Shown here piece after piece: positions 11,198 through 37,905 of a stretch of DNA of 64,000 nucleotides. The notes beneath the pieces were generated by a model. The model made no database searches and had not been told where the DNA came from. It saw nothing but the letters and a program-made list of their open reading frames with translations. Both the position numbers and the translations under genes were made by a program. The number at the start of each line of letters is the position of its first letter. Positions within the stretch are counted from its first letter, which is position 1. Origin of the DNA: Patescibacteria group bacterium (GTDB taxonomy: Bacteria; Patescibacteriota; UBA1384; XYA2-FULL-43-10; 1-14-0-10-43-13); assembly GCA_041666325.1 (NCBI GenBank), contig JBAYHC010000003.1:31102-95101 (forward strand), written 5' to 3'.

Positions 11198-12247
11198 CTA
11201 GCCGAAGAAGAAGAATCTGGCGTCCGGCCACCACAGCACGTTCAGCACCGCGAGGGCGAAGATGACGACACCGACGACGATGAGGATCCGAACCCACCTC
11301 GGGATACGTCCGATCCCCATGACCCATTCACTGATGCCGTAGGCGATGCTGGCTGCGAGGAGAAATCCCAGCCCCAGCTTGAAGATGCCCCAGAGCCACT
11401 CCCAGATGGTTCGGCCAGAGCCGGAATCCGGACTAGCCGGTGGGGCTCCTGCCCCGGGCGCGGGTGCGCCGGGCGCCGGTGCTGCTCCGGGTGTTCCGGG
11501 CGTGGGCGTACCAGGTGCCGGGACCACCACGGCAGGCAAATCATACCGCCCAGCGGGCGGAGACGGCCGACCGGTCTCAGCTTCGAGCAACCGCACCCGA
11601 TCATCGAGCGCCTTGTCGTTGAACTGCAACCTCCCTATCTCCCTCTTCCGGTTGCGGTTTGCCTGTTCCAGGCTCGCTACTCTGTCTTTGAGCCGAGAGA
11701 CAGACTGCGACAGCGCATTGAGCCGAAGCTCGAACTTGGCTGCCCAGCGTGCCACCTCGACCCTGACCATCTGCCGGATACTGGCGATCGAAGCGCCGAA
11801 GCGCTGGCCGGCCGACTGGTGTCGGCTGCTGCCGCGCCAGGCATGGCGGCGGCGCTCGGCGTAACGGCGCTTGTCGTAGCGCTTGCCGCCGGCGGTGACG
11901 CCGGTATTGCCACTAGACGGGGCCAGGGCGGCCGAAGGCCGCTTGGCGGGCGAGGTGGTCGTGACCGGCGGTGTACCGGAGCCCGGCCAATCCGGATCGG
12001 GTGCCGTGACCTCCGTGCCCGGGGCAGGTGCCGGCGACGTTGCCGTCGCAGGCGTAGCCTCTGCCGGAGCCGAAGCCTCGGCAGGCGCCTGCGGCGCGGC
12101 TGGCTTCTCGGGCTCGGTCGGCGCCTGGGGCGCGGATCCACCGTCCTCGGTGTAGACCTCGACGGCGCCCGGCGCCGCCATGGCGCCAATGTTGATCGAA
12201 GCGAACACGAGTGCGGCCACGAGGGCCGCCGCGAACAATACCTTCAC
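11198..12247 (-). CDS. Secreted or membrane-anchored Pro/Ala-rich protein encoded in a ~67% GC island. It has a signal peptide and a C-terminal TM segment.
   Basis: GTG start 7 nt after AGAGGGGAG gives MKVLFAAALVAALVFASINIGAMA-AP. Pro-rich tracts APQAPTEPEKPAAPQAPAEASAPAEATPATATSPAPAPG and PAPGTPTPGTPGAAPAPGAPAPGAGAPP. Central coiled-coil-like segment. C-terminal hydrophobic segment ILIVVGVVIFALAVLNVLWW. GC content is far above the flanks. Confidence 0.5.
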   Translation of the reverse strand: MKVLFAAALVAALVFASINIGAMAAPGAVEVYTEDGGSAPQAPTEPEKPAAPQAPAEASAPAEATPATATSPAPAPGTEVTAPDPDWPGSGTPPVTTTSPAKRPSAALAPSSGNTGVTAGGKRYDKRRYAERRRHAWRGSSRHQSAGQRFGASIASIRQMVRVEVARWAAKFELRLNALSQSVSRLKDRVASLEQANRNRKREIGRLQFNDKALDDRVRLLEAETGRPSPPAGRYDLPAVVVPAPGTPTPGTPGAAPAPGAPAPGAGAPPASPDSGSGRTIWEWLWGIFKLGLGFLLAASIAYGISEWVMGIGRIPRWVRILIVVGVVIFALAVLNVLWWPDARFFFFG

Positions 12248-12428
12248 GGTCGTACTCCCCTCTTCTGCCGCCCTTACGGGACGGCGCTTTCGCCGGCCCT
12301 GATGGGCGGCTCGAAGGACCATTTGAATCTGGCCTTCTGGCAATTGAATCCGGCTTTGGCGTTACTTCGCCAGCGCAGATACAATGTGTCAAAAGACAAC
12401 CTTACCCCTTAAAAAAATGCGACAATGT

Positions 12429-14199: not shown

Positions 14200-14339
14200 A
14201 TGAGTATTTGTCACTAAGGAGATCGTTATTGCCCACTTGTTATCATCCCGAGTAATGCATATCGAAATCAAGGAATCCCTCCACTCTCGCAATCACACAG
14301 GTCGGGATGACAGGCAAAGGGTTTATACAGCGCATTATA

Positions 14340-15497: not shown

Positions 15498-15900
15498 CCG
15501 ACTCCTTTCAGTCGTCACTCCTACAAAATTACAAATAAATCGAAATTACGAAATTACAAATAAATTCATTAAACATTCGTAATTTTGTATTTTCGTGAAG
15601 ATTCGTACTTTCGCAGGTGATTCGGTTATTTAAAAAATGCGGGCAAACCCGCAGACTTCCGTATTTAGCAAATCGTATTGCGTATTTCGAAAAACGAGAT
15701 ACGAACTGCGAATCACCATCTACGAACACATCCTCGGCAGGTAATTAAGCCGGATCCGTATTTCGTGGACCGTATTGCGTATTTCGAAAAACGAGATACG
15801 AACTACGAGTCACTATTTACGAACCAGCGCCTGCTGTCTGCGGATAAGACAAACAAATATTATCAAATTATGTTCTAAACGTCAATAGGGCTGGTAAGGC
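15498..15900 (-). promoter_or_regulatory. rplA-rplJ intergenic region and candidate L10 leader. It contains two ~56-bp direct repeats and a TACGAA-word palindrome.
   Basis: Direct repeats at about 15672-15735 and 15776-15838 read cgtattgcgtatttcgaaaaacgagatacgaact.cga.tcac.at.tacgaac. The position corresponds to the known L10(L12)4 autoregulatory leader location. Confidence 0.3.
15530..15630. repeat. MITE-like imperfect palindrome built from the ~45-bp TACGAAA/TTTCGTA repeat unit, a cargo-less copy of the repeat family that flanks the GxxExxY gene.
   Basis: Left arm cgaaattacgaaattacaaataaa, right arm attcgtaattttgtattttcgtgaagattcgtactttcgcagg. Confidence 0.45.
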
Positions 15901-19002: not shown

Positions 19003-19472
19003 CTACCAAATTACGAATCGCACGAAAATACGAAAGTACGAATAATCATCTAATATTTAGTACCCGCTTGGATTCAACACCAGAGGAAGTTACATTGATA
19101 AGTATTCCAAGAGAAATATTTGTTGATTTAAGATATGAAAGCAATTGTGCGATATCACGTTTATGAAAATGATTACCAACCTTGAGCTCAAGAGCGATCC
19201 TGTCTTCAACTAGAAAGTCAAGGTAGTACCTGCCGATAACAGTATCTCCAACCATGATTGGCACGTGCAACTGGCACTTAAAGTTAATTTTGTTTTTAGA
19301 AAATACTTCTTCGAGAGCTTTCTGGTACGCCTTTTCTCTCAAACCATATCCCAACACGTTAAAAACCTCGAAGCAACAACCCATGATTCTGTAGCTCTCA
19401 TCTTTGTAAACTATATCCGTCATCGAATTCGTACTTTCGTATTTTCGCTAAATTCGTACTTTCGTCGGGGGC
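19003..19472. mobile_element. Candidate miniature mobile cassette: a GxxExxY-family gene exactly bracketed by ~40-bp imperfect terminal inverted repeats.
   Basis: Left inverted repeat aaattacgaatcgcacgaaaatacgaaagtacgaataatca abuts the stop codon. Right inverted repeat attcgtactttcgtattttcgctaaattcgtactttcg abuts the start codon. The two share an identical 21-bp core, cgaaaatacgaaagtacgaat and its reverse complement. Confidence 0.45.
19046..19423 (-). CDS. GxxExxY-family protein (PD-(D/E)xK-like small protein).
   Basis: MGCCFEVFNVLGYGLREKAY contains the G..E..Y signature. Size (~125 aa) is typical of the family. Confidence 0.8.
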   Translation of the reverse strand: MTDIVYKDESYRIMGCCFEVFNVLGYGLREKAYQKALEEVFSKNKINFKCQLHVPIMVGDTVIGRYYLDFLVEDRIALELKVGNHFHKRDIAQLLSYLKSTNISLGILINVTSSGVESKRVLNIR

Positions 19473-19794: not shown

Positions 19795-19898
19795 CCCTAC
19801 TAAATTACGAATTAATCGAAACTACGAAATTACAAACATATTCTTCATTTAATATTCGTAATTTTGTATTTTCGCTAGATTTGTACTTTTGTAGGGGC
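19795..19898. repeat. MITE-like imperfect palindrome of the same ~45-bp repeat family, bounded by CCCCTAC...GTAGGGG.
   Basis: The right arm attcgtaattttgtattttcgctagatttgtacttttgtagggg is ~85% identical to the right inverted repeat of the GxxExxY cassette. The left arm is its approximate reverse complement. Confidence 0.45.
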
Positions 19899-21842: not shown

Positions 21843-23999
21843 CTAGACTCGGAAGATGTCGCTCGCAATCTCAGCAACTTCTAACTGATCGAGAATAACT
21901 TTTCTATATCGCACATATGTTATTGCAACTCCTGCAACAAGTGTGAGCATGAAGCTCGCAGATGCGGCAGCACCACTCTTTGGTAAGTTTGGAATGATCG
22001 GCGTCTCTGTTTCCGTGACCGTTGTCGTGACACTCGATGCTGTGACAATGGTCGTTTTAATCTTTGTCTTGGCAGTATCGGTCAAGATGGTATCGTCGTC
22101 TTTAAGTGATGCAGTATTGGTTAGAGTCTCTCCGGCAGCAATATTCCCAGACAAAACAACTCTAATCTTAATATAGCCGCTATCCCCTGGCGCAATGGTA
22201 TCAAGAACAATACCGGTGTTAATCAAGCCCTCAGGCAATGTTTTTTCCATACTACCGTTGAGTGATATGATCGTGGTGCCAGGAACATACTGGGTATTGG
22301 CTGGCAGGGTATCAAGGAAGCGTACCACATCTGCTGGCGCATTGCCCTTGTTAGAAAACTCAATCTTGTATTCTAGGGTATCGGTTGAAAAAGCTTCATT
22401 ATTATCAACAAAGTTTGACTCGTTGGCAGTGAAGTTTCTAACTAATTTTTCAATCTTAAGATCGGCTTTCTTCACCTCAACTGCCGGCCTTGGCAAGCGG
22501 ACCATAACTTCGTCTCCGTATTTGTTATACATAACGAAGTCAAAGCTGGTGCCGTTCTGAGGCTGATTTGGAATTGGGTTTTTGACCCGAACCGTAAAGG
22601 TAAAATTGAGCGGCTGGTTTTCTGTCAAATCTACTGCCGGCCAACGGATCAATTTGGCATCATTGCCTGTTGTTCCATCAGTGATCACACCGCTGTCTGA
22701 AATATTAGTCACTTCGGCATACTCAAGTATGTCTGCAATACCGTCCTCGACTACGAAGCCTGGCTTTCGTCCGCCCTCGCTCGTAGCAGTAAGACTGTAA
22801 ACAATTATGTCTCCTGGATTAGCGTCTAACTCCAGAGCACTACCGCTGCGTTTCGCTGCCTGTTTGCCGGAAGTCGTATTGGTAGCACCTTTGCGCTTCA
22901 CAACGTTGCCTTCATCTGGTCTGAGAGTAATCGAAACCTCATCTTCTTTTGAGATGCTCCCGGCAGTGGCGATAGCTTTATTCTTAACAATGGATTGTGC
23001 TGTAATTACGCTTGGAGATTTGACCTTAAACCTGAAGGCGTGTGTCTCGTCTTGTCCGACTGGATGAGACATAGGCAGTCCATCTCCTACCAACTTATCA
23101 AAGTCAGAGTCAGGCAAAGACATAGACGCTCCGCTCACGACATGCTCAAGCGTGCCGGGAACAAATGTAAGCTCAGATGGCTTAATATCTTTGACTATCA
23201 GATTATCAATGCTAGCTGTGCCAGTATTGGTTACATCAATGTTAAAGGCAAGCTCCTGGTTTGATGTAGCGCTTGTTTGATCAAGAAAATCATTCTCGCC
23301 ACGGCTAATGTTTCTTACTTTTTTATCAACGCTGAAATTAACAGCATTGGTTATTGCAGTTGTTCTAACCCTGAAGGTGATAAATCCAGCAAAAGGCCAA
23401 CATGCATTCACGGTCCCAATGTTTGCACCATTGGCCGAAAAAAGATCGTCATTGAGCGTTACTGGAACCAAACCGCTTCCAGGCAAGATGTCGTCACGCC
23501 TCTGCACCTCTTTGTACCACTTAACAGAGCCTGCAACAGGCTCGACTTGAGCATTCTTGTCTAGCTGTATTGTAAGACCAGGGGTACCGATAACTCTTCC
23601 GTCGACACTTGTTTCAGTGGCCACTGTCGAGGCATTGCTCGCCGCAATACTTGCCGTGAGATTGGCGACAAGATTATCGGTTCTATCAGGAATATTTAGT
23701 TTAATTACAACATTCTCAGCGGGAGCACTAGCATCCTCAGTTGCAGAACCGTTGTGATAGTAAATCACTCCCTCAAATTCGTCTCCTGCGCTTCCAGATA
23801 TAGGATCATCCCACGTCCTCTGGTTTTGCGTTGCGTTTCGTCCAAATAGCAACTCATAGTCGCCATCAAGAAAATTAAATCTTGGCTCGAGCGCTTGAGC
23901 AGAAACTGCAGGGAAAACGATAAAAGAGAGCAAAGAAACGAGCAATGAAAGCCCGGTGATGGACTTGATCTTTGTTTTCAAGTATTCATTAAATCTCAT
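21843..23999 (-). CDS. Secreted surface protein with DUF11 (conserved repeat domain) repeats and a C-terminal LPxxG-like sorting signal.
   Basis: Signal peptide LSLLVSLLSFIVFPAVSAQA. DUF11-like units LEYKIEFSNKGNAPADVVRFLDTLPANTQYVPGT and AFNIDVTNTGTASIDNLIVKDIKPSELTFVPGT. C-terminal NLPKSG, then a hydrophobic stretch, then RYRK. Confidence 0.75.
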   Translation of the reverse strand: MRFNEYLKTKIKSITGLSLLVSLLSFIVFPAVSAQALEPRFNFLDGDYELLFGRNATQNQRTWDDPISGSAGDEFEGVIYYHNGSATEDASAPAENVVIKLNIPDRTDNLVANLTASIAASNASTVATETSVDGRVIGTPGLTIQLDKNAQVEPVAGSVKWYKEVQRRDDILPGSGLVPVTLNDDLFSANGANIGTVNACWPFAGFITFRVRTTAITNAVNFSVDKKVRNISRGENDFLDQTSATSNQELAFNIDVTNTGTASIDNLIVKDIKPSELTFVPGTLEHVVSGASMSLPDSDFDKLVGDGLPMSHPVGQDETHAFRFKVKSPSVITAQSIVKNKAIATAGSISKEDEVSITLRPDEGNVVKRKGATNTTSGKQAAKRSGSALELDANPGDIIVYSLTATSEGGRKPGFVVEDGIADILEYAEVTNISDSGVITDGTTGNDAKLIRWPAVDLTENQPLNFTFTVRVKNPIPNQPQNGTSFDFVMYNKYGDEVMVRLPRPAVEVKKADLKIEKLVRNFTANESNFVDNNEAFSTDTLEYKIEFSNKGNAPADVVRFLDTLPANTQYVPGTTIISLNGSMEKTLPEGLINTGIVLDTIAPGDSGYIKIRVVLSGNIAAGETLTNTASLKDDDTILTDTAKTKIKTTIVTASSVTTTVTETETPIIPNLPKSGAAASASFMLTLVAGVAITYVRYRKVILDQLEVAEIASDIFRV

Positions 24000-25601: not shown

Positions 25602-25895
25602 GGGCATCCTTTCTTTCTATTTCTTAACTTTAATTTAATTAGTCTTATTCTATCTTTTCGTCTATCAACAAGCGCTTAAACATAACACGGCCAATACCTG
25701 TTGTCAATAGGCCACATCTCATCCGTGCGTTTCATAATATTTATGATGTCTAGAAAACAATTTTTCCCACCACTGCTTGTCGCTACTTCAAAGCAACAAT
25801 CGTTCTTCTGATGGTTGCTTTGGGTAACGGGCGACTCAAAGAGTCGCCCTGGGATCGGATGGGGACGCTTCTCCTGGAGAATTGTCCCCGGTTTG

Positions 25896-26846
25896 TCAGA
25901 ATGCCGCTCCAGGCGGAGGCGTTGTCGGCGCCCCGGGCTGGTTGGCGTAGTCGTTGTTGGTCCACGACGTCGGTGGCAGAGGGGGTGGGCCTGAGCCACC
26001 GCCTGACCCCGGCAGACCGCCCGCGCCACCCGGCAGGGTGGGCGTGCCGCCCTGGCCCCCGTTGTCGTGGGGGGTGGTGACGAGCGGATCGTTGGGCGGG
26101 GGCGGCGGGTTGCCGTTGCCCGGTCCATTGCCAGGCTTGCCGCCCTGGCCGGGCTGACCACCCGGCGGGTTGATGATGTTCGTGTTGGTATTGCTATTGT
26201 TAACACGAATATTGTTCTGCTGCCTGGGGGTATAGCCCAGGCTACTGGAATGCCCCCAGCGCTCGGTGCGCGGAGCGCGCGCCGACCGGTACGACATCCC
26301 AAGGTCGACTTCGCCTCGGAAACGCCGCACGATCTTCGTGCGCCTCACGATCGGAGCCGGCGAAGCCGGGACCTCCGGGAGATCGACGTGCACCTGCGTC
26401 GCAGGTGCCTCGATCTCGACCTCAGTCTCAAACCTCTGGTCCCTGGGGGCGGGCGGGGGCGGGCAGACGTGCTTGGAAACAGACCAGCAGGCCGTGGAGA
26501 TGTTGCCGCAGCCTGCCTTCGAGATCGAATCCTTGTTCAGCGCCACGAAGACACGGGCGTTGAACTGGGTTCCCACCTGCCGGCCGTAGAAAACGCTACC
26601 TTCCGGCCAGCGAATGCGCCGCTGAACCCAGCCGCTCTTACGGTGCAGCGTGGTCGTGCCCCATACCGCGTACGGAGCGACGCCGACGACCTCGCCGGGC
26701 TGCATCTGCAGCACCTGGGCCCGGTCGGGGTTGGGATTCTGGAGCAGGTAGGAGACCTCGACGGTCTCCGTCGCCTGAGTTGCCGAAAGCGGAGCTGCCG
26801 CTGCGAAGGCCGCCAGGAGGACGACCAGCCACATGCGTATCCTCAT
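25896..26846 (-). CDS. Secreted protein with a Gly/Pro-rich C-terminal tail, encoded in a GC-rich island.
   Basis: Signal peptide MRIRMWLVVLLAAFAAAAPLSA. C-terminal low-complexity tail PPGGQPGQGGKPGNGPGNGNPPPPPNDP...GGAGGLPGSGGGSGPPPLPP. Start overlaps the stop of the upstream gene. Confidence 0.6.
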   Translation of the reverse strand: MRIRMWLVVLLAAFAAAAPLSATQATETVEVSYLLQNPNPDRAQVLQMQPGEVVGVAPYAVWGTTTLHRKSGWVQRRIRWPEGSVFYGRQVGTQFNARVFVALNKDSISKAGCGNISTACWSVSKHVCPPPPAPRDQRFETEVEIEAPATQVHVDLPEVPASPAPIVRRTKIVRRFRGEVDLGMSYRSARAPRTERWGHSSSLGYTPRQQNNIRVNNSNTNTNIINPPGGQPGQGGKPGNGPGNGNPPPPPNDPLVTTPHDNGGQGGTPTLPGGAGGLPGSGGGSGPPPLPPTSWTNNDYANQPGAPTTPPPGAAF

Positions 26847-27914
26847 CTACTTGCCCTCCTCCAAGGTCATGCGGTACTTCGCGTCGCCGCTGACCTTGAT
26901 GGTCGTCTTGTACAAGGTGCGGGTCTGCCGAGCAAACATTCGCACCACCACCACCGTTCCGGGCGGTGCCTTCACAACCAAAGGCTTGCCATCCGTCTGA
27001 GCCTTTTCGTGCCCGTCCGGCATAGCATATCGCTTGTAGACCTCCTTCCCGTCCGCTTCGACAACGGCGTCATACGGACCGCCGCCATAGCCGCGAGGCG
27101 GGAAGACCTTGATGGTCACCCGGCTTTCGCCGGAGTTAGTCTGCGAGGCGGCGTCTTGGATACGCTTGACGGCCTCATCGGTCGTCTGCCGCACATCATG
27201 ACGCCACTTCTCCAGCTCGGGGGTGTTCTCGACAGTCCCATTGCTGGTGCCCTCGTCGACTACCTCCTCGCTATCCTCGCCAGCGGCCGCGTCTGGGTTG
27301 GTCGGCATGCCACCGAAGTGATAGCCAGCCATCCAGCCCGCCAGCTGGTCGCCGGTGCAGTTCCCGCCCGGTCCCTCGACCAGGAAGTATTGCACGAAGT
27401 TGTTGTGCTTGGTCTTGCCGCGGAGCGAGAGAACGGGAATCCAGAGCGCGTAGTAACGGCTCAGCTTCCCGCCATCCAGCTCGACGATGGGATACATCGC
27501 ATGCGACCCCAAGCGCTGACCTGACGTGCTGACGAAGTCGACGAACCCCTCGCCCGGAGTCAAGGCTACCGGTGTTAGTCCCTTGATGATCCCGCTGGCC
27601 TCCTTGGAGGATGCTATCGGGATCGGGGACCACCTGATGCTCTTGATCTCCCCGCGCGAGGTTGAGATGTCCAGTCGCCGTCGGAGCGACGTGCCTCTGA
27701 CTGCCGTCAGGGCCTTGTCGGAGCGATCCGACCAGGTCCAGAACGGGTCACCCGAGGTAGCGCCCGACGCATAGTGATCGACGGCCACCGAGACGGTGAC
27801 CTCGGCCTTCTCGTACTGATTGTTGAGGCCGATGAGCCAACCGTCCGCCGCATTCGCGTTGCCAGTGATCACAGCAGACAGCAGGATCACCAGCAGCCAT
27901 GCTGCTTTTTGCAT
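26847..27914 (-). CDS. Secreted hypothetical protein in the same GC-rich island.
   Basis: Signal peptide MQKAAWLLVILLSAVITGNANA after an internal Met. Translationally coupled to the downstream gene. About 65% GC. Confidence 0.6.
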   Translation of the reverse strand: MQKAAWLLVILLSAVITGNANAADGWLIGLNNQYEKAEVTVSVAVDHYASGATSGDPFWTWSDRSDKALTAVRGTSLRRRLDISTSRGEIKSIRWSPIPIASSKEASGIIKGLTPVALTPGEGFVDFVSTSGQRLGSHAMYPIVELDGGKLSRYYALWIPVLSLRGKTKHNNFVQYFLVEGPGGNCTGDQLAGWMAGYHFGGMPTNPDAAAGEDSEEVVDEGTSNGTVENTPELEKWRHDVRQTTDEAVKRIQDAASQTNSGESRVTIKVFPPRGYGGGPYDAVVEADGKEVYKRYAMPDGHEKAQTDGKPLVVKAPPGTVVVVRMFARQTRTLYKTTIKVSGDAKYRMTLEEGK

Positions 27915-28079
27915 CTTCCCTCCCCTTTCTGCGTGATCACCTGCTGTGCAGGCGGTGATCGTCTGTGTGTGTACTATCTTCCTGGCAGCCTGCCCTGCCA
28001 GAAGATCATTCGGACTTAGCCTTCGCTTAGTCCGAGACATATGAAATGATTAATTAATTATTCACGCTAGCTCTCGCTC

Positions 28080-28160
28080 GTCATCCTGAGAGAATCGAAA
28101 GATCTCTTCGTATGCCGCGGGATTCTTCCCCCAACATGTCGGGATCAGAATGACAACTGG
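28080..28160. repeat. Boundary palindromic element A (GTCATCCTGAG ... TCAGAATGACAACTGG) at the right edge of the high-GC block of island 2.
   Basis: Terminal inverted repeat GTCATCCTGAG / CAGAATGAC. The interior has nested palindromes. The same terminal motif is found in element B at 36950-37091. Confidence 0.5.
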
Positions 28161-28321
28161 AAGCGTATCGCAATCATTTTCACTTCGTCTCAAACTAATT
28201 CCCTCTCTATAAACAAAATTGGGCACAAACTACTGTAGCCCAATACTATTATTGAATTCTCTGCCCCTCGTCAATACCTCGATGGTCAATGTTATCACCG
28301 CTTTCTTGGGCATAAGTCCTC

Positions 28322-28412
28322 AATCCCCTGCTAAATTACAAAGAAAACGAATTACCAAAACACGAATCTCAATTTATTTGTACTTTCGTGCGGTTATTCG
28401 TAATTTCGTAGG
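28322..28412. repeat. MITE-like palindrome of the TACGAA-word family (cctgctaaattac ... gtaatttcgtaggag).
   Basis: Arms are related to the inverted repeats of the GxxExxY cassette. Confidence 0.4.
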
Positions 28413-28671
28413 AGTTTGGTTATTTCCTTCAATCAAGCCAGGAGAGCGGCGAGAAACGATAGCAGCCGGCAAGGCCAAGTCCACTATTTTTTTGGGACTT
28501 GTGAATGCCAACCAGCCTTAAGACCTACCGTCCTAATTTCCCACTATCCCAGCCAGGTTGAAGAAAGTAACATTTTTTAGCTCTATGACACTGATATTTC
28601 TTCCCCCTCTGCTTCGAATTACTCAACGGAAGGAATGTTATCACTTTTAGAGATATTTGTCAATAGTTAGA

Positions 28672-28702
28672 CACAAAAGTGGTGGACATCAGTCCACCAC
28701 CC
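28672..28702 (-). terminator. Intrinsic terminator (GTGGTGGAC-tgat-GTCCACCAC followed by TTTTGTG) overlapping the stop codon of 28689..29108.
   Basis: Perfect 9-bp stem followed by a U-tract on the minus strand. Confidence 0.5.
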
Positions 28703-29108
28703 TAATCTTCGAAACACTCTCGGCGTACTTGGCGTGCGCCGTCTGCAAAAGCAGGATAAACAATGCCTTCTCCGTAACCTCATAGCTGCGGCGCAAATCG
28801 CCATCGAGAGGCAAGATTTCCCCCACGCTCTCCAAGGCGGCAATCACAACTGCTATTGCAGTGGAGTACTCTTGATCACTCTTCAGACGCTCCAGGGCCG
28901 CCAGGATATACTGGCGAAGAATGACATCTAGCACACGGAGATCCGAAATACCAGTCGTTCCCTCTGGTAGTGCCATAGACACAAGAAACAAAAGAGTGTC
29001 ATCATCCTGGCCTGGCAAACAGAGATTAGCCGGGCTAGCTAGTGCGGCCTTGTATCCCTCAACGAGAGGATGCTTCAGTAGCGCACGCAACCCATCTACG
29101 AAGTACAT
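28689..29108 (-). CDS. Hypothetical protein.
   Basis: 139-aa ORF followed by a terminator. Moderately GC-elevated accessory block. Confidence 0.5.
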   Translation of the reverse strand: MYFVDGLRALLKHPLVEGYKAALASPANLCLPGQDDDTLLFLVSMALPEGTTGISDLRVLDVILRQYILAALERLKSDQEYSTAIAVVIAALESVGEILPLDGDLRRSYEVTEKALFILLLQTAHAKYAESVSKIRVVD

Positions 29109-29124
29109 CCCTGCACCTCACTTC

Positions 29125-29499
29125 CTATCCTTGGTGCGGAGGCAGCCAATTGGCATTTGGCACCCCTTCCTCGCCTTGAAGTCCAGACTTACCTCTGAGT
29201 CCTTCCATGTACTCGATGGCTCGGTTGCTAACAGCAGAGTAGACACGAAGACCATCAACACCAACTTGATTGCCCATATCGACACAAGCAGCATAGACAT
29301 CCTTGTGCTTTCTTATGGTTTCCTTGACCAAGCCGGCAGCGGCCGCGATGTTCTCGGGCGTTGGCTCCTCGTCCAGAGCCTTGAGCAGAGCGCCAGCCAT
29401 CTCATCAACCTTGGCCTGGGCCAATTCAACGAGATCTCCGGTCTCTACTCCAGCGCCTGGAATCTGCTGTCCTACCTCGCCTACTGATGATGTTTCCAT
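29125..29499 (-). CDS. Hypothetical protein.
   Basis: 124-aa ORF in an operon-like arrangement with 28689..29108. Confidence 0.5.
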   Translation of the reverse strand: METSSVGEVGQQIPGAGVETGDLVELAQAKVDEMAGALLKALDEEPTPENIAAAAGLVKETIRKHKDVYAACVDMGNQVGVDGLRVYSAVSNRAIEYMEGLRGKSGLQGEEGVPNANWLPPHQG

Positions 29500-29609
29500 C
29501 TTGCTCCTTTTTTGAGCTAGTTAATAGTAAACTAAGAATGTAACCATGTCAATGGTATATACCTCATCGTAGATTAACACTGTCTGTAGTGTCAATGTGG
29601 AAAACAAAA

Positions 29610-29645
29610 AACCGCCCGCCAAGAATGGCGAGACGGATTGAAATC
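29610..29645 (-). terminator. Candidate intrinsic terminator after 29656..30706.
   Basis: aaaaaaccgcccgccaagaatggcgagacgg, a GC stem flanked on the minus strand by a U6 tract. Confidence 0.35.
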
Positions 29646-29655
29646 CCCCACAAAA

Positions 29656-30706
29656 CTAAATCAAACCCTCACGGCGAAGCTCTTTATCAATTTCTGCCAA
29701 CTCTTCGTCGGTTGGCTCATCATCATCAACATCGACAGGAGACTGCTCGCCCGCAAGAGCATAGAGCGACACGCCGCAGCGCTCTCGAAGCAACCGATCG
29801 GTATACTCAACCTGATAGCCGCCAGACAGGATCCCGCTTGCGGCTCCAATAACCGCATCAGTGTAGAGATAGTCATGGGCAAAACAATTAAAGAGCCAAA
29901 TCATCCACACAAAGTGGTCCGCACTTCCGCTAGTGATCTCTCCGAGCAACATGTGGACGTCGAAATAATAAATGGCACGCGCAGTTAGTGGCAAAAGACC
30001 AACCAAATCACTATTCACAAGCGCCTTCTCATTCAACTCGGCCATGATGCCGCCTTCGCCAAGGCCACGTTTGAAAGCATCACGCAAATACATCTCGGCG
30101 ATGTCATCAGCCAAAGGTTTGGCCCGATCCAAATCGGCAGGCCGCAATTTAATGTACGCTGCTTGCACCAAATCCAAGACCGACCAATCAGTATCCTTAA
30201 TGAATGCCGCCAACTGCTCAGCTCGGCGATCACTATTCTCGTGCTCGTAGCAAACAAGCAACAAAGCAAGAATGCGCTGATCATCACGCCCAACAACGGG
30301 CAAGCCAACCAATTGGCAAATGGTATTGAGCTTGCTCAGAGCATCGGAACCGGTCTCACCGATTCGCTCCGGCTGACCATAGCCCTCGCCTATGATCTTC
30401 TCGATTGCCCTCGCCCAAGCAATAATACCGGTGTTCATCCGGGATCCCAGATAAACCAAAGTGTCGGGATCGAGAGTGAAATAATTATACTCAAGCACCT
30501 CGACCCGGTGATCGTCGGTGAACCTGTAATCAAGACTGGTCAAAAAAGGAAACGCAACATTCTCGACGTGATCCCTAATCGCTTCGGACGAATAGCTTGT
30601 GAACCAATCAACCGTTTCGCAAAAGACAAAGTAAGCCGGAGATTCGGATGCCTTGCCGGCAAAGTAATCAGTCCGGAACTCCTCGTATTCCTCAGGCCAT
30701 GCCATG
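29656..30706 (-). CDS. Hypothetical protein (~350 aa).
   Basis: Long ORF. Start at MAWPEEYEEF is preferred over the upstream Met. Confidence 0.55.
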
Positions 30707-30862
30707 GCCGCTCCCCTTCTCAAGCAGAAACTCTCTACTTGAGATGACCCCAATCCGCCAGCCATGCACCAGAGCGGTACATGGGCAGTTGGCAGACGGG
30801 GCCATTCTCAAAAAGAGATAGTCGTAGTTAAGCACAAAATATTACGACAAGCAACAATCAGA

Positions 30863-31918
30863 CTACTCTAGCTCAGCTTGCGTCGGAGCCAATTGGTTGT
30901 ACTCACCTACCTCAACACCATATTCCGAAACAAACTCCTCGTATGGCAAATCATCAACCGCACCAGCCACCTTCGCGCCTCGCAATTGGTATTTAGAAAC
31001 AACTTTCCACTTCAGACCCTTTTGGCGGATTTTCGTGCGCAAGGCCTTAACATCGCTACCAGTCCAAATTGTAATCGGCTGCTCGCCAGATCGCTCTTCG
31101 ATTAAGGCAACAACATCTGGATTCAACTCGCCATTCTCGTCGAGCAGTGTGCCTTCGATATCGATGCACAGATCAGGAAACTCCTCGCCAGCGAGTGGCG
31201 TAATTCTTTTGTTCGCTTCCGCCCTCTCCATCTGTGTCAGCCGGATCAACTCTTCTTGCGGCAAATCGCCGAAAACAAGCCGAGCTAACCTCTCCCACGC
31301 TACCATTTTGTCTCCGCCTTGAGCCAAGGCATATCGCAAATCATGCTGGAGTGCGCCAACTGCAGTTTCAGCATTTGGCACTTCCATTAATCGCAAAGCC
31401 AAGGGATCGCTGGGTCTTGTCTCATTCTCAACTTCGCCAAGTAAAATCGCCTTCATGTCAACCAATGACAGCGGAAGTCTGGCAAAGTGAACATTGGAAT
31501 AAGAGCGCAAGGCGTGATATCGTTTATCGTTGGCCAGCTGAATCTCGGGCGACCAAGACAAAACAATAACCGGTTTTCCATCCGGAGCAAATTTTAGTGC
31601 TTCATCAAGCCCAATCATGTCTGTCCGCTTGCCACCGTCAACCAACATCTCAGAAAAGACCAGTGTTCCCTCTGTGCCCTCGGGCAACAACATTGTCGCC
31701 CGCTCCAGTGCTTCTCGAATCGGCGCACTATCCGTGATAATTCTAATCTCGGGTCTGCCCCGCAGTACATCTTTGTCTTCTCTGCTGCGTTCTTGGGCCG
31801 ATTCGAGTTCTCCGGCTCGAGCCGAGGCAACCTCGCGATCCTGAGATAATTCTTTATCCAAGCCACCATCGCCCTCGGTCCCCTCGCCATTCAACGCACA
31901 ATACTTTCTTTCGTCCAT
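30863..31918 (-). CDS. Hypothetical protein with a C-terminal HAD-like hydrolase module.
   Basis: DLCIDIEGTLLD carries a DxDGT motif I, followed by a Rossmann-like C-terminal region. Confidence 0.55.
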   Translation of the reverse strand: MDERKYCALNGEGTEGDGGLDKELSQDREVASARAGELESAQERSREDKDVLRGRPEIRIITDSAPIREALERATMLLPEGTEGTLVFSEMLVDGGKRTDMIGLDEALKFAPDGKPVIVLSWSPEIQLANDKRYHALRSYSNVHFARLPLSLVDMKAILLGEVENETRPSDPLALRLMEVPNAETAVGALQHDLRYALAQGGDKMVAWERLARLVFGDLPQEELIRLTQMERAEANKRITPLAGEEFPDLCIDIEGTLLDENGELNPDVVALIEERSGEQPITIWTGSDVKALRTKIRQKGLKWKVVSKYQLRGAKVAGAVDDLPYEEFVSEYGVEVGEYNQLAPTQAELE

Positions 31919-31925
31919 TTTTCTC

Positions 31926-32231
31926 CTATCTGTTATCTAAAAATTTAAAAAATTCATCGGCGCGTTCCGGAAAAGTATTTCTAAGACTGCCATTGATTGT
32001 ACCCCTGGTCGACGCAATCTCATTCTGAACATTCCCCTGCTCCGGCTGTACAGGAGCACCAATATCCTCGATCAGATCGATTTCGCCTCTCTGAATCATG
32101 ACAGCGATTTCCCTATCAGGTTTCATTGATCGAAGCACACCCTCGACGTCTGCTTGGACTAAAAATGACGGTTTCTCAGCGTGAGCGCGATAGCTCGCCA
32201 CCTCATCGATATTTAAAAATTCTCTTTCCAT
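31926..32231 (-). CDS. Hypothetical small protein.
   Basis: 101-aa ORF positioned between neighbouring genes. Confidence 0.4.
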   Translation of the reverse strand: MEREFLNIDEVASYRAHAEKPSFLVQADVEGVLRSMKPDREIAVMIQRGEIDLIEDIGAPVQPEQGNVQNEIASTRGTINGSLRNTFPERADEFFKFLDNR

Positions 32232-32287
32232 CTATTACTCCTGAATTAAGCCACCATACACCGGCATTAAGTCGAATCTTCCTTCTC

Positions 32288-32902
32288 TCATACTTGACTT
32301 TCTTTAATTTCTTTCTTTTCATCTTCTTTTTTAATTGTTGGTATTTCACCTGGGTCGACACCAAAACGGCGGCGGGCAACATCTCGCAAGGCTTCAGACG
32401 AATAGCTGGCCAAAGGGTTGCCGCTCTGATGATAGGCGTTCAGGTCAACTTCATAAGTCGTTTTTCCGTTGCCAAACCAGTTAGTTTCCTCTGTATTATA
32501 TTGCTTGCCATAACGATAAATCTCTTGATAACCAGCGAATGGTATAGTCGAGCGAACATGGATCATCTCGCCGCTATCAATTTTCAAGACCGTCCCGACA
32601 AATTCCTCGCCATCATAAATTCTGACCGCCCGAACTTCTCCACGATCATTTAGAAAATATTCACCGCGAAGACCCCTCTCCTCGGCCTCTTTTTGCAACT
32701 GTTGACAGCGCTCCTCTTCTCTTGACGCTAGCTGCTTCTTGTTTTTTTCTCGCTCAAGAGCTTCCAAAAAATATTGTCTGATCGGCTCCCAGTCTGGATC
32801 AACCTTCCCGTTTTCGTCTGCACCCAAGCAGTCAACCACACCATTAACAACATTTTCATTAATTACACCGTCAATTTCCTGGCCTTCGTTTTCTCTTCGC
32901 AT
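32288..32902 (-). CDS. Hypothetical protein.
   Basis: ORF with an internal start at MRRENEG. Confidence 0.5.
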   Translation of the reverse strand: MRRENEGQEIDGVINENVVNGVVDCLGADENGKVDPDWEPIRQYFLEALEREKNKKQLASREEERCQQLQKEAEERGLRGEYFLNDRGEVRAVRIYDGEEFVGTVLKIDSGEMIHVRSTIPFAGYQEIYRYGKQYNTEETNWFGNGKTTYEVDLNAYHQSGNPLASYSSEALRDVARRRFGVDPGEIPTIKKEDEKKEIKESQV

Positions 32903-33118
32903 AGTCTCCTTTGTTAACAAAAAATGGAGTTTCCTCCAGGTTAAAAAACTCATTAGTCTAACATTGTCTCCAACTCTCGAGCCGCCCACCTCCGTGGTCA
33001 GCTCGAGGTTAGGCTCGGACCCGTGTCCGAGCAGGATTGGAAACTTGCCGCCTTTTCTCGCCCCCTATGTGTTCAGGGGGAATCACGGCTTATCGACCCG
33101 TTTCCAGGGCCGTGGCAC

Positions 33119-33616
33119 TCACTTGGCCAGCGCTTGCCGGCGCCGCTCGAGACCGAGGGCTCTTGACATTCTCTGAATCTCCCGATCTACCGCGCGCATA
33201 TTGAATTGCACGGCGTTGACAGTAGAGTAGGAACTTTCAGAGAGACAATTACCCTGCTTGTCCCGAACGATCACCCAGACGTAGTTGCCATAGTGGCCAG
33301 GCGTTACCTTGGACTCGACGATAAAGTCGGCCCCGGTAATACTGGTCCGCTTGGCACCCGCCTCGATGATCGCCTGCATTGCCCTGGAGACAAGCGGTCC
33401 GCCGTTCTTGGAAGCGACCGTCATGCCCGCGATGTCCGCCTCTTTGAGAGCACTCTTCACACTCTCAGGCAGCGCATCGTAGCGCTTGACGATCTTCGCC
33501 TCCTCGGTAGTCAGCAGACGCGGCTCGTCGTCCTTAACAGCACAACCGGCACAAGCCAGCGCAACGAACAGTAAGACAACGACTTTTTGTATTTGTTTCA
33601 CCCCCTCTCTGAGCAT
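33119..33616 (-). CDS. Lipoprotein (lipobox LACAGC) in a GC-elevated region.
   Basis: MLREGVKQIQKVVVLLFVALACAGCAV.... Confidence 0.5.
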   Translation of the reverse strand: MLREGVKQIQKVVVLLFVALACAGCAVKDDEPRLLTTEEAKIVKRYDALPESVKSALKEADIAGMTVASKNGGPLVSRAMQAIIEAGAKRTSITGADFIVESKVTPGHYGNYVWVIVRDKQGNCLSESSYSTVNAVQFNMRAVDREIQRMSRALGLERRRQALAK

Positions 33617-33698
33617 TCTCTGCTCAAGGTGAGCTCGGTTGCGGGTCGGACCCACACCCGAGCAGAGATACGAGGAGCTGCGCTTGCCGTTTTGCTGC

Positions 33699-34073
33699 TC
33701 ACTTGGCGCGAGCAAACCGGCGCTTGTAATAATCAACCTCCCTCCCTTCGTCATTGACCAGATGGTAGACGGCGATGTCCAGCCACTGGCCCGCCTCGAC
33801 CGGTCCGTTGGGATCGACGGTGCCGTCGTACTCGATCCGACCAGGCAGAGCGATCCTGCCCTCGTCGTACTCGAGACAGACGACATCCTGCTCGGTGTCC
33901 CCTCTGAGCTTGCAGGCAGCGGAGCCCGCCGGAGCCTTGACCCAGACCTCGACGAGGATGTCGCCGTTGGCCTGAGGCACGTACTCCTCTCGGGTGATCT
34001 CGCCGCCCTTGGTCTGGGCACAGCCGGCGAAAGCGAGAATGCCGAAGATAGCGATCAGTGCCAGTGCCTTCAT
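33699..34073 (-). CDS. Lipoprotein (lipobox LAFAGC).
   Basis: MKALALIAIFGILAFAGCAQ.... Confidence 0.55.
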   Translation of the reverse strand: MKALALIAIFGILAFAGCAQTKGGEITREEYVPQANGDILVEVWVKAPAGSAACKLRGDTEQDVVCLEYDEGRIALPGRIEYDGTVDPNGPVEAGQWLDIAVYHLVNDEGREVDYYKRRFARAK

Positions 34074-34711
34074 GAAACCCTTCCTTTCTGTGAACACACT
34101 ACAGTCTCCTCGCAAAGAGCTCCTTGAGCCCTTGTGCCAATAGACTGAAATGGCAACCCATTACAACAAAATCATTTACCAAAAACACACACCCTTTTGT
34201 CGCGTACGCTACAAAAGTGATGATGTTTTCAACCCTCAGAGGATAGCCCGATCACAAGATCGGGCAGGATCTATCTGAGAGCAGAAACCGGGGGCGGTGG
34301 AGATAATAGTATGGATGCTCGACTTGATAGCCAAAAACCCACACCCTCGTTCTCTCCACCAAGGCAACGAGTAGCCGTTTATAGCAACGGCGGTTGATGC
34401 CTGCCGGACACACTGGTGTGCCCAGCCCCTACGACGACATGCGGTCATCGCACAACACGACGTTATCTCGTGTTGCCGGTCTTTTCGGGCAGCGGAGTAG
34501 TTACCCACTTTTCCTCCACCGTCTTGCCGCAATCAGCCAAGCTGACACTGGCGGCAAAATAGGCTGAGCGGGTCCATGCCACCTGCGCCGAGCTCCTCGA
34601 TTAGGATCGACGACGCAAGTTAAGGCTCCTCTTTCTGCTTAACCTACCCTTACTGCTCAACCACTGGCAACAATGCTACCTAAGGTGGGTACCAGATAGT
34701 TGAGTTTTCCC

Positions 34712-34790
34712 GATGAGCATTCCGCTCTGAGTCAACCCTGAACCCGACGTGGTTCAGGGGGATATCAGAAAGGATCTGAGGTGGTGAAGA
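34712..34790. repeat. Repeat R1, containing the hairpin CCCTGAACC-n6-GGTTCAGGG.
   Basis: gagcattccgctctgagtcaaccctgaacccgacgtggttcagggggatatcagaaagg. Confidence 0.5.
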
Positions 34791-35819
34791 TAAGAACCGT
34801 CTTATCCAGACGTTCCCCGCTCTCTTCACGCAGGGCAGCCTCCCCGGCCAGGCCCTAGATGGCCCCGGCCTATTGAGTGAGCTCTAGCGGTACCACTATC
34901 TGCTGTGGTTGGCTATGTTCCCTCCCAAACAGATTTCGGGAAGCCGAGTAATCGCCCAGTTTTCCTCGGCCGTTTCACCGCACCGGTCTGATCCTTCCCC
35001 AGGGAAGAATAAGTTCCGGGGCGATAAATTCATCGAGACCAGTAAACAGCACCGTGTGCCGCCACTAATCTCACCCTTTGCGCCGGCTAGTTGAGTTGTA
35101 ACATGAGTCTATCAACCTCATGCCACCGGGTGTTCAACAATCATAGCCTGGCAATTTCAGGAAGCGTGGCCTTAATCCTGTAATTCATCCACGCTTTTCA
35201 CCGCACCAGTGGGTCTCGTGACCGTTCAAGGCGGTCGCGCCTTTCGGCTCCCGAGGTAGACCAACTGGAGGCGGCAAACAACTCGAAGGTGCTAGCACTA
35301 GGCCATCATTTGACCACCAGCACATTCTCGTCGCCTTTTTCATGACTGGGCGAATGACGGGATCGCGATTTCAGGTCGCGGCAGGTATCCCGATGCCCAG
35401 TCGCCGATTCCTTCCTCGGAGGATGGCCCGATCTCTAGTGGATCAAGGCCGGATCTTTCCGAAGAAAGAGTGGGGGTGTGGAGAATATAGTCGCCGTGGC
35501 GACCCTCGTCACCTCCACCACACCAGTTACGAGTGGGCTGAGTTACACCTCAGGTGCACCTGAGACTTGGCTCTTATGGCGGGCCTTTATCCGCCCCTGT
35601 GCCCATCTGGGACCCCCAATTTCGGGACGGCAGATAACTATCCGTCTTTCTCTGCCGGCTCGCCGCACCACACTGGGGGCGGCAAGTATCATCAAAATGT
35701 TGCGATGTCCGGTACATATCCCGGCTTGCTTTTTTTGACGACCCCTTCTTGTTGTCGATCCAGTAGGTGATTCACCCCGGCCTGTGCCGTTCGGATACTG
35801 CCTCGACAACCATTTTTAT

Positions 35820-35895
35820 TGAGCTTCCGCTCTGAGGCAACCCTGAACCCAATACGGTTCAGGGGGGATATCAGAGGGGAAATTGTGTCACCTCG
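35820..35895. repeat. Repeat R2, about 85% identical to R1.
   Basis: gagcttccgctctgaggcaaccctgaacccaatacggttcaggggggatatcagagggg. Confidence 0.5.
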
Positions 35896-36079
35896 ATTTG
35901 GATGAGTGTGGTTCGCCCTGGGTCCTCCAGGAAACAGGCGCCACGAAGGTGACAGCGGGGATCATATCTGCGCTTTCCTTTACCGCGCTTTTCTTATAAG
36001 TTTTGCAGCCCTTGGGCTATAACTTCTTATAAGACGGCCTGATACTAGCCGGATCGTTCTCGATCATCGAAGCTTCAAG

Positions 36080-36376
36080 CTACGCTGGGCTGACGGAGAG
36101 CCCCAGCTTGCCGCTCAAGAAAGCAGCGGCCACAGCCGGAGTCTTCGCCAGACTCTCGGGATACGGCAGTGATACGATCACGCCTCCCCCGACGTAGCTC
36201 CGCTCGCCCTCCCCGCGCAGTGCGTTTTCCACGTAGTGGATTCGCCCCGAGCAGGTGGTGCAATGCGAGCAGCTAATGCGGGCGACTTCTATCGCCACCT
36301 TGTCTCTGTCAAAAGAGACTTGGCGCGAATTCCGCCATCCGCCTACCCACACACGAAACCCGTGTTCAGGCATCAT
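36080..36376 (-). CDS. Possible small Cys-containing protein (CSHCTTC), weakly supported.
   Basis: GGGGGGTG ribosome-binding-like motif before ATGATG. 98-aa ORF inside the otherwise non-coding stretch. Confidence 0.3.
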   Translation of the reverse strand: MMPEHGFRVWVGGWRNSRQVSFDRDKVAIEVARISCSHCTTCSGRIHYVENALRGEGERSYVGGGVIVSLPYPESLAKTPAVAAAFLSGKLGLSVSPA

Positions 36377-36949
36377 TGTTCACCCCCTTCCCTTTTTGGT
36401 GCCTAATGCCGGCCTTTGCCTTGCGGCCGTACCGGTTTGACAAACCGCCTCAACCAGAAGTCTCATCTTTCTTCCAATTGATTTGGCTAGCCAATCAGCA
36501 GTTTCAACTTTCCAGCCATCAACTATTTGATAGCTCGAGGTTGATCCCGATCCGCCAAAGGCGAGATCGGGACAGGTAGGGATATAGGTGTTGGGCGCAG
36601 GGATTATGTCATCATCAGGGTTCGGGCCCGACGAGACCTCATTCTCCTGCCAGGCGCACTTAGGCCTTTTAATGAGTAGGGATTCCCCTATACGCCCCCT
36701 CAAGGGGAGCGAAGCGGGGGCCACCCTGGGCACACTCCTGCCACTGCCCGACCAGCGGGCCCAACACCTCTTCGGTCAACCGGCCACAGCCGTGCTTGAC
36801 TGAAGTCTTCATTGCGGTGAAGTGGAAGGGAGTTGTAGCAGACCGTACCCCGATATGCGGCTAAGGTGGTAATTATATTTCCTGCCGTCGGGGGGAGTGC
36901 CACAACTCTGCTTCCAGCTCACTGCAAATATTGTTTATTTCTCTTTCCC

Positions 36950-37091
36950 ATCATCCTGAGCGAAGCGACCGTGTCCCTCGTAGCTTTAGCGGAGTGAGAT
37001 GGATCTAGAGCCGATGCATCGGTTCACATGCGGTCGCCGCGGCGACCTAGATTCTTCGCTTCAAAGCTACATCGCTCAGAATGACAATTGG
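36950..37091. repeat. Boundary palindromic element B (TCATCCTGAGCGA ... TCGCTCAGAATGACAATTGG) at the right edge of island 3.
   Basis: About 140-bp imperfect palindrome with nested inverted repeats (GTAGCTTTAGCG/CGCTTCAAAGCTAC, GGATCTAGAG/CCTAGATTC, CCGATGCATCGG). It shares its terminal motifs with element A. Confidence 0.5.
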
Positions 37092-37423
37092 TTCTTTGTC
37101 AAACTGACTTGACTTATACTGTGGTTAATGAAAAATCTTATGTTTGCAACCTATTGGCTTAAATTAAGCCTCACATGGCTGATTTATTTATAAGTTTCTC
37201 ATTCACCAGGACACAATGCTACCATATTGTTTTTATTTTGTCAATGCTAGTTGACATATTTATATAACAGTTATTACATTTGTCAAGTCAGGGACTACAA
37301 AATTACCACCAATTTATTTAGTGAATGCTATGAAAGTGTTATATATAGCGGACAGATTGTCATCACCTGTTTAGCTTTATTCAAGACTAATTTCTTACTA
37401 TTTTGTTCGGTGATGGCAGTAAG

Positions 37424-37452
37424 TATTGACAATATTATTATTCTGTGCTAAC
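37424..37452 (+). promoter_or_regulatory. Strong sigma70-like promoter (TTGACA-17-TAACAT) in an AT-rich region that also carries TTGTCAA/TTGACA operator-like palindromes.
   Basis: agtaTTGACAatattattattctgtgcTAACATtgtgagc. tgtcaatgctagttgaca at about 37240. Confidence 0.45.
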
Positions 37453-37454
37453 AT

Positions 37455-37905
37455 TGTGAGCGTAATCCTGCAGAAGGGAGGACTCAAACCGGGAAGTGCC
37501 CCAACACTGGGGGCGAGACGACTGTCTAGCTTCCCGGGGCAAACCTCCGGGAATCGTCTGGTGGTATCACCGTTCGGTCTCCGGAGGGAGGTGGAGCTAT
37601 GGATACATGAGTATCCTGCGCTTGCCGGGCGCCTTATGGGCGCCCGTGGAAGCAATAGCTTCGCCATCCTGCCTGAGGAAGAAAGAAATGGATGTCTGAA
37701 AAAGAGAGGCGGCCAATTGCCGCCGGATGGAAGACGATCGTGTCATTTTCGCTCGTTGGCTTGGCCGTCGGCAAATCAGCCAGCGGCTAGGCACACAGCG
37801 ATAGCCTGAGTGCGCCCGAGGACGGGTCACTCTCGAAAGGATCTGCTACATCATATGGGCAGATAGCGACCACAAAGGCGCCCCGACTAGCGGGGCGCCC
37901 ATTTT
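37455..37905 (+). ncRNA. Candidate ~450-nt non-coding RNA of unknown class, GC-rich, lying between the promoter and the intrinsic terminator.
   Basis: No credible ORF; the only track ORF starts inside the promoter and is low-complexity. Internal GC hairpins such as CGGGCGCC-ttat-GGGCGCCCG. Terminator hairpin at the 3' end. No plus-strand gene lies downstream. Confidence 0.35.

Follow-up and report, generated by a model that had tools for sequence, protein, structure and literature searches.

A GC-rich pair of genes for predicted exported proteins, probably acquired as one unit, in a small Patescibacteria genome

How a strongly GC-rich block with two genes came to lie beside adhesin-type genes in a small genome, and what its products might do, is the question raised by a stretch of DNA from a Patescibacteria group bacterium (NCBI GenBank assembly GCA_041666325.1, contig JBAYHC010000003.1, positions 31,102 to 95,101 of the forward strand). 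The whole stretch of 64,000 nt is referred to here as the window, and positions are counted from its first letter. The two genes, named g1 and g2, are located directly upstream of two genes encoding DUF11/CLIPPER proteins. We consider the block to be probably an imported, autonomous operon for exported proteins that was acquired horizontally, and we infer the direction and the recency of the transfer from the sequence.

Composition and codon usage of the block

The window has a mean GC content of about 46% and contains three GC-rich patches, at 11.1–12.4 kb, 25.8–28.0 kb and 33.1–37.8 kb. The second patch is the block in question, which the GC profile delimited as a compositional islet of 2161 nt (25830..27990) with 64.3% GC. 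Considering that 110 background windows of 500 nt had a GC content of 0.462±0.034 and none of them exceeded 0.552, the sharp rise described in the initial annotation of this DNA is real and well outside local fluctuation. In 200-nt windows, the GC content did not fall below 0.61 between about 25830 and about 27990; it peaked at 0.745 over the tail of g2, and the flanks were at 0.36–0.50. The lower border, formerly placed at 25650, was about 180 nt too far out and lies nearer 25830; the segment 25610–25790 is AT-rich and holds a promoter-like site (TTGACA-17-TATGTT) of the downstream DUF11 gene, which was correctly named as the neighbour (Pfam E = 6e-21). Both borders are sharp and coincide with the promoter-like site of g1 and the hairpins 3ʹ of g2.

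The shift was also found at synonymous sites. The GC content of third codon positions (GC3) was 0.795 for g1 and 0.801 for g2, compared to 0.487±0.032 (range 0.43–0.55) for 19 native genes. As the first 230 codons of g2, which are non-repetitive, were equally shifted (0.804), amino-acid bias is not the cause. Relative synonymous codon usage (RSCU) of g1 correlated with that of g2 at 0.86, while the correlation of the two with host genes was only −0.09 to 0.14, compared to 0.83 between two halves of the host genes. The four genes just upstream (28.7–31.9 kb) were host-like, with RSCU correlations of 0.66–0.69, and the foreign segment therefore comprises the g1/g2 operon only. The deviant nucleotide and codon composition by which genomic islands are recognized was thus present (GC 0.643, GC3 0.80, RSCU correlation with the host close to 0).

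Layout of the operon and its only relative

Two minus-strand open reading frames (ORFs) occupy the block, in agreement with the earlier two-gene description. The gene g1 (26847..27914, minus strand) encodes an exported-type protein of 355 amino acids (aa) (P0001), and g2 (25896..26846, minus strand) encodes an exported-type protein of 316 aa (P0002). The start of g1 is M43 (27914) of a longer ORF, both in the public gene calls (NCBI, JGI and ENA) and in our reading; a start at 28040 was rejected because the longer ORF would run through the promoter-like region. The Shine-Dalgarno site of g1, GGGGAGGG, is located at 27925–27918 on the minus strand.

At the junction of the two genes (26844..26862, minus strand), the TAG of g1 (26849–26847) directly abuts the ATG of g2 (26846), with a gap of 0 nt and in one frame, and a Shine-Dalgarno sequence, GGAGGAGG, lies within the end of g1, 9–16 nt upstream of the ATG. 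Coupling is recognized by stop and start codons that abut or overlap, together with a ribosome-binding site within the first of the two genes, and the arrangement found here suggests that g1 and g2 would be co-transcribed and apparently translationally coupled. The earlier proposal of a coupled pair of secreted proteins was therefore upheld in its operon layout and its two signal-peptide-type N-termini, and only the overlap between the genes had to be dropped, as they abut without overlapping. Since g1 and g2 share one frame with a single TAG between them, read-through would join them into a fusion of 672 residues in which one signal peptide is internal. This fusion was judged implausible, given that g2 has a signal peptide and a Shine-Dalgarno site of its own.

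Each of the two proteins has one strongly hydrophobic stretch at residues 5–17, which holds the only strongly hydrophobic 11-mers, followed by a small-x-small cleavage motif (ANA↓AD in g1 and TQA↓TE in g2), in agreement with the two signal peptides noted earlier. Sequence inspection revealed no lipobox cysteine, no second membrane segment and no LPXTG-type or other sortase signal in either protein. With an n-h-c signal peptide, a small-x-small motif and no further membrane segment, both products are predicted to be exported by Sec. The long plus-strand shadow ORF (26067..27524, 485 codons) that had been reported across the pair does exist; it is a codon-aligned antisense frame and not a gene. 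Stop codons in this frame are possible only opposite sense TTA, CTA or TCA, which account for 5 of the 673 codons; the ORF is delimited by TCA codons at 27524 and 26006, and its first-position GC content (0.81) reflects the GC3 of the sense frame. The window itself yielded no paralogue of either gene.

Upstream of g1, a candidate sigma-70-type promoter is located at 27973..28001 on the minus strand, with a −35 element CTGGCA (28001–27996), a −10 element GATAGT (27978–27973) and a 17-nt spacer that forms an inverted repeat. CTGGCA-17-GATAGT may function as the promoter of the pair, and it overlaps a motif that recurs at the only homologous locus, contig L007, which is described below. This 17-nt motif, AAGATAGTACAC[A/T]CACA (27964..27980, minus strand), occurs once in the window and is shared with the region upstream of the g1 homologue (L007 64–80). 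Between the motif and g1, the 5ʹ untranslated region (5ʹUTR) carries a hairpin, GATCACC-N12-GGTGATC (27935..27960, minus strand), which is missing from the L007 homologue. Directly 3ʹ of g2, there are three stacked GC-rich hairpins (25789..25889, minus strand) with a minimum free energy of −54 kcal/mol, compared to −31.5±3.6 for shuffled sequences (z = −6.2). They are probably a terminator or an RNA-stabilising 3ʹ end, the terminator role being predicted from the fold. From promoter-like site through 5ʹUTR hairpin, g1, abutting TAG and ATG, g2 and 3ʹ hairpins, the block appears to be an autonomous unit.

In a word-indexed search of 5.8 billion protein clusters with g1 and g2 as queries, only self-matches were returned. 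The public records list both as hypothetical proteins of a metagenome-assembled genome (MAG) named 'Patescibacteria group bacterium', on the 687-kb contig. Neither the two proteins nor their domain fragments had a match in Pfam, PHROGs, NCBIfam or PDB sequences, and nothing was found for them in tblastn scans of plasmids and phages or in viral-contig scans. When g1 was used as the query in an exhaustive HMMER scan of 1.84 billion cluster representatives, a single credible relative was found, P0003, a protein of 319 aa (E = 7e-6, 27% identity over 260 residues) that shares with g1 a signal peptide followed by AADG[WF] and the motifs DPFW, IRWS and N.FVQ. Two weaker HMMER matches, P0004 and P0005, were dismissed as repeat proteins, and L008, the sole return of an alignment-based metagenome scan, was spurious, as the match was confined to 41 signal-peptide residues. 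The gene g1 thus belongs to a new and extremely rare family, with two members known and no assignment in the libraries searched.

The gene for P0003 lies on a Logan contig of 1195 bp (L007; contig 153874, SRR22387783) with a GC content of 0.54 and a GC3 of 0.65. It is preceded by AAGATAGTACACTCACA, which equals window positions 27980–27964 at 16 of 17 positions; the local alignment score was 14, which none of 5000 shuffles reached. At its end, the gene has GGAGGAGG...TAATG and runs into a second ORF that begins with a signal peptide and of which only 47 residues are present, too short for deciding its homology with g2. This arrangement is suggestive of a promoter, gene pair and coupling that travel as one unit.

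Origin of the block

In the nearest genome found, L004 (JAKJEK010000072), the two DUF11 proteins and PrfA have 54–66% aa identity with those of the window. A distant relative, L006, is syntenic downstream of the slot (DUF11-prfA-ybaB-pth-L1-L10-L7/12-tgt), with neither g1/g2 nor a comparable GC peak. No relatives of g1 or g2 were found anywhere in L004, L006 or L005, another Patescibacteria genome. Horizontal acquisition, which the initial annotation had offered side by side with a chimeric sequence, is therefore the best reading, given the GC3 of 0.80, the codon usage uncorrelated with the host and the lack of relatives of the pair in the related genomes searched; the chimeric option is unlikely, as shown below.

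The slot itself is occupied differently in the two distant genomes. In L006, the DUF11 adhesin gene is directly preceded by a gene (8468–9772) for a secreted protein of 434 aa whose C-terminus is rich in Pro. Its GC3 is 0.41, compared to 0.19–0.28 in its neighbours, and it had no Pfam match and no homology to g1 or g2. The slot of L005 holds a gene for a lipoprotein of 255 aa that ends in a Pro-rich region. Judging from these two distant genomes, the position beside the adhesin genes may be variable for secreted proteins and may serve as a recurrent insertion slot.

We propose that the block is an islet or moron-like foreign transcription unit that was inserted in an accessory surface-protein region of this approximately 0.69-Mb genome. 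CTGGCA-17-GATAGT would drive one bicistronic mRNA, on which g1 would be translated from its strong Shine-Dalgarno site. Ribosomes ending at the g1 TAG would re-initiate at the abutting g2 ATG, aided by GGAGGAGG, and the two proteins would thus be made together. The three stacked hairpins would end or stabilise the transcript ahead of the separately promoted DUF11/CLIPPER adhesin genes. Both products would then be exported by Sec and cleaved, and outside the cell they would act together, as a wall-associated or secreted binding pair contributing to the variable surface of an episymbiont.

Several points weigh against this account. No integrase, tRNA, flanking direct repeats or target-site duplication was found at the islet, and the contig of the nearest genome, L004, ends in the first DUF11 gene, at the slot, showing no empty site. 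The candidate promoter agrees with the consensus at 8 of 12 positions, under the threshold of the promoter scan, and no U-tract or T-run follows any of the three hairpins 3ʹ of g2, none of which was listed by the same scan. The motif score of 14 shared with L007 ranked first among about 1750 segments of the window, but the next best, unrelated segment reached 13. No donor was identified, the only relative, P0003, being on a short contig with a GC content of 0.54, and the exhaustive profile search covered g1 only. Moreover, the un-ameliorated composition implies a recent transfer, yet nothing similar was found in very large databases. As for the functional part, it is weakly grounded, with predicted local distance difference test (pLDDT) scores of 41 and 43 for the models of g1 and g2, which were predicted without homologues, and Foldseek searches of these models against PDB gave no match at an E-value of 0.001 or better.

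The hallmarks of mobility were likewise absent: the window has no tRNA, the borders have no significant flanking direct or inverted repeats, and the neighbour genes scanned contain no recombinase or integrase domain. An integron gene cassette was rejected, as the pair has its own promoter-like site, the only palindrome is located 5ʹ and belongs to a dispersed-repeat family, and the neighbour genes that were scanned contained no integrase.

Islands typically carry orphan surface proteins. Patescibacteria often have genomic islands, which make up as much as 13% of the genome in one survey (PMC12455944), and the block resembles the islets of that survey in its deviant GC and codons, sharp borders, orphan exported products and accessory location. 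It differs from them in being only 2.2 kb long and in having no tRNA, integrase or flanking repeats and no identified donor, and its contrast (GC3 +0.31) is unusually large for a streamlined genome of 0.69 Mb. The block is, in these terms, a fairly ordinary genomic islet, a routine case with orphan exported proteins. It is nevertheless a clean example, with sharp borders, an apparently complete unit from promoter to 3ʹ hairpins and independent assembly support, and it implies that a reduced 0.69-Mb genome still acquires and retains un-ameliorated foreign surface-protein genes. The memorable points are the GC3 contrast in so small a genome, the codon signature common to its islets and the cassette layout that matches the only relative.

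Phage morons, as in lambdoid phages, are autonomous promoter-gene-terminator units of deviant composition, and orphan genes in islands have classically been ascribed to the phage gene pool. The block is similar to a moron in being apparently self-contained, with a promoter-like site, a coupled gene pair, stacked 3ʹ hairpins and a composition unlike both neighbours. A true moron remnant, that is, cargo of a degraded prophage or integrative element across the annotation-free 25.9–37.9 kb, would account for this layout and for about 12 kb in which consecutive genes have no family match, including a GC-rich stretch of about 3.7 kb without long ORFs. However, the block lies outside any recognisable prophage, no gene in 25.9–37.9 kb had a PHROGs match, the phage, plasmid and viral-contig collections returned nothing, the genes between the islets are host-like in codon usage, and no integrase or att repeats were seen. 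We therefore regard a phage or mobile-element remnant as unlikely.

It could also be argued that g1 and g2 are native, fast-evolving, lineage-specific surface genes whose high GC content arose in place, through amino-acid bias or through GC-biased gene conversion at a recombination hot spot. The lack of a donor and of a mobility signature would fit such an origin, as would the richness of both proteins in G, P and A and the atypical secreted protein in the slot upstream of DUF11 in L006. Against it, the shift is at synonymous sites and is as strong in the non-repetitive N-terminal 230 codons of g2, the adjacent native DUF11 surface genes have a GC3 of only 0.43–0.48, the sharp borders match the promoter and terminator hairpins, and P0003 is found at a different GC content (0.54), indicating that the family is not bound to this genome. 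An origin in place is accordingly quite improbable.

An artefact of assembly or binning, with high-GC DNA of another organism spliced into a Patescibacteria contig, would explain the sharp composition break and the presence of three GC-rich patches in 64 kb, and the source is indeed a MEGAHIT contig from a metagenome. An independently assembled Logan contig (L002; SRR18595301) was 100% identical over 26021–28963, so that the upstream junction was reproduced by a second assembler, but it stops at 26021, inside the low-complexity tail, leaving the downstream junction without independent coverage. Such a chimera is nonetheless hardly credible, as the source contig is 687 kb long, both proteins recur beside identical neighbours on contigs of 20–50 kb, each protein is listed under two NCBI accessions from MAG records, two false joins would be required for one internal insert of 2.2 kb and six for three islets, and the synteny (DUF11-DUF11-prfA) resumes immediately, with both sides syntenic.

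Products of the pair and surrounding features

The gene g2 ends in a low-complexity tail (25899..26171, minus strand; residues about 226–316) that is rich in G, P, N and Q; its sequence had been quoted exactly, but its description as collagen-like was not borne out. The longest G-X-Y run comprises 5 triplets, and Gly stands at the triplet start in 9/30, 9/30 and 6/29 cases in the three registers, none of which is dominant. Pfam Collagen (PF01391) gave no match to the whole of g2 at E up to 0.1 or to the tail alone at E up to 10. Bacterial collagen-like proteins such as Scl1/Scl2 and BclA (PF01391) are similar to g2 in being exported and in having a Gly/Pro-rich C-terminal region, whereas g2 has no sustained Gly-X-Y repeat and its region is predicted to be disordered. 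A bacterial collagen-like protein was therefore rejected, and the tail is a low-complexity, probably disordered extension. In its low-confidence AlphaFold model, g2 consists of a signal peptide (1–25), a small beta domain (about 30–105), cysteines at 113, 120 and 128, and about 200 disordered residues, with no structure over residues about 105–316. The model of g1, also of low confidence, begins with a signal peptide (1–22) and a beta-rich N domain, to which the conservation with P0003 applies; an acidic linker and a long helix follow, leading to a second beta domain at the C-terminus.

The operon adjoins two genes for sortase-type DUF11/CLIPPER proteins. One of them (21843–23999, minus strand) encodes a 718-aa protein with LPKSG, a hydrophobic segment and a basic tail, which together form a sortase-type signal that g1 and g2 do not have. 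The DUF11/CLIPPER domain marks the stalks of fibrillar adhesins (PMC12617251). The pair resembles fibrillar adhesin loci with such stalks (PMC12617251) in its neighbourhood, being directly upstream of two DUF11/CLIPPER proteins, and some secreted protein with a Pro-rich tail is kept at this slot in distant relatives. Unlike the adhesin genes, g1 and g2 have no CLIPPER domain or sorting signal, and they have their own promoter-like site and 3ʹ hairpins. Because of the apparent coupling, the exported-looking products and the adjoining DUF11/CLIPPER genes, a role in surface interactions is the likeliest of the functions considered; even so, we suggest only tentatively that the two products may form an extracellular or wall-associated pair acting jointly.

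Element A (28080..28160, minus strand), at which the initial annotation let the block end, does exist and is a weak palindrome (fold z = −2.0 compared to shuffles). It is located 40–120 nt outside the GC boundary, has host-type composition and is a diverged copy of the GTCATTCTGA...GAAGAATC palindromic intergenic repeat. Its ends, TTGTCATTCTGA...GAAGAATC, are shared with a canonical copy at about 37045–37085 and a weaker copy at 14302, and its core also occurs in L005 (12565–12595). Element A is thus a dispersed palindromic repeat of the host lineage and not an island terminus. It is similar to intergenic palindromes of the repetitive extragenic palindromic (REP) or miniature inverted-repeat transposable element (MITE) type in being short, imperfect, intergenic, multi-copy and common to Patescibacteria genomes; it differs in that the copy at 28.1 kb is diverged, with an expanded centre, and has no demonstrable link to the island border. 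A second family, of 'ATTACGAA'-rich repeats, forms inverted pairs at 15520–15618, 19001–19049/19427–19470, 19796–19897 and 28321–28418. One of these pairs brackets a small PDDEXK_3 gene (19046–19423), and one copy lies in the 650-nt intergenic region directly upstream of element A and the islet.

The codon signature of g1 and g2 recurs in the other two GC-rich islets, whose genes had RSCU correlations of 0.60–0.79 with the pair. The three islets have one common foreign codon signature, and all of them encode exported or membrane proteins. In islet 1 (11198–12343, minus strand; GC 0.68, GC3 0.76), a gene with codon usage correlated at 0.77–0.79 with g1 and g2 encodes a protein of 381 aa. This protein has a hydrophobic segment at its N-terminus, regions rich in Pro/Ala, a stretch in the centre that resembles a coiled coil, and membrane segments at the C-terminus; it had no significant family match, the marginal ones being well under the cut-off. 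At 33119–34115 (minus strand), two small predicted lipoproteins with lipobox-like motifs (...FAGC and ...CAGC) are encoded with a GC3 of 0.69–0.76 and a foreign-type codon usage (correlation of 0.60–0.64 with g1 and g2), and no family matches were found for them. One might suppose that the three islets are repeated captures, into surface-protein slots like that upstream of the DUF11/CLIPPER genes, from one high-GC partner, plausibly the host of the episymbiont. We give this idea little credence; if it were true, the cassettes would be host-interaction factors, and their composition and homologues would offer a handle on the host of an uncultured lineage.

Over about 12 kb (25896–37900), contiguous genes alternate between foreign-type islets and host-like codon usage (28.7–31.9 kb). 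No significant Pfam or PHROGs match was obtained in this interval, the best being a marginal Hydrolase_3 match (E = 0.06) under the cut-off. Within it, about 3.7 kb (34130–37850) at 54–56% GC has no ORF exceeding 117 aa on either strand and contains no tRNA, and a comparison with Rfam gave no match even when E-values up to 1 were allowed. This segment holds a pair of 42-nt direct repeats (34720 and 35825) and the canonical GTCATTCTGA...GAAGAATC element. It is odd for a streamlined 0.69-Mb genome and might represent either foreign DNA in decay or a large RNA.

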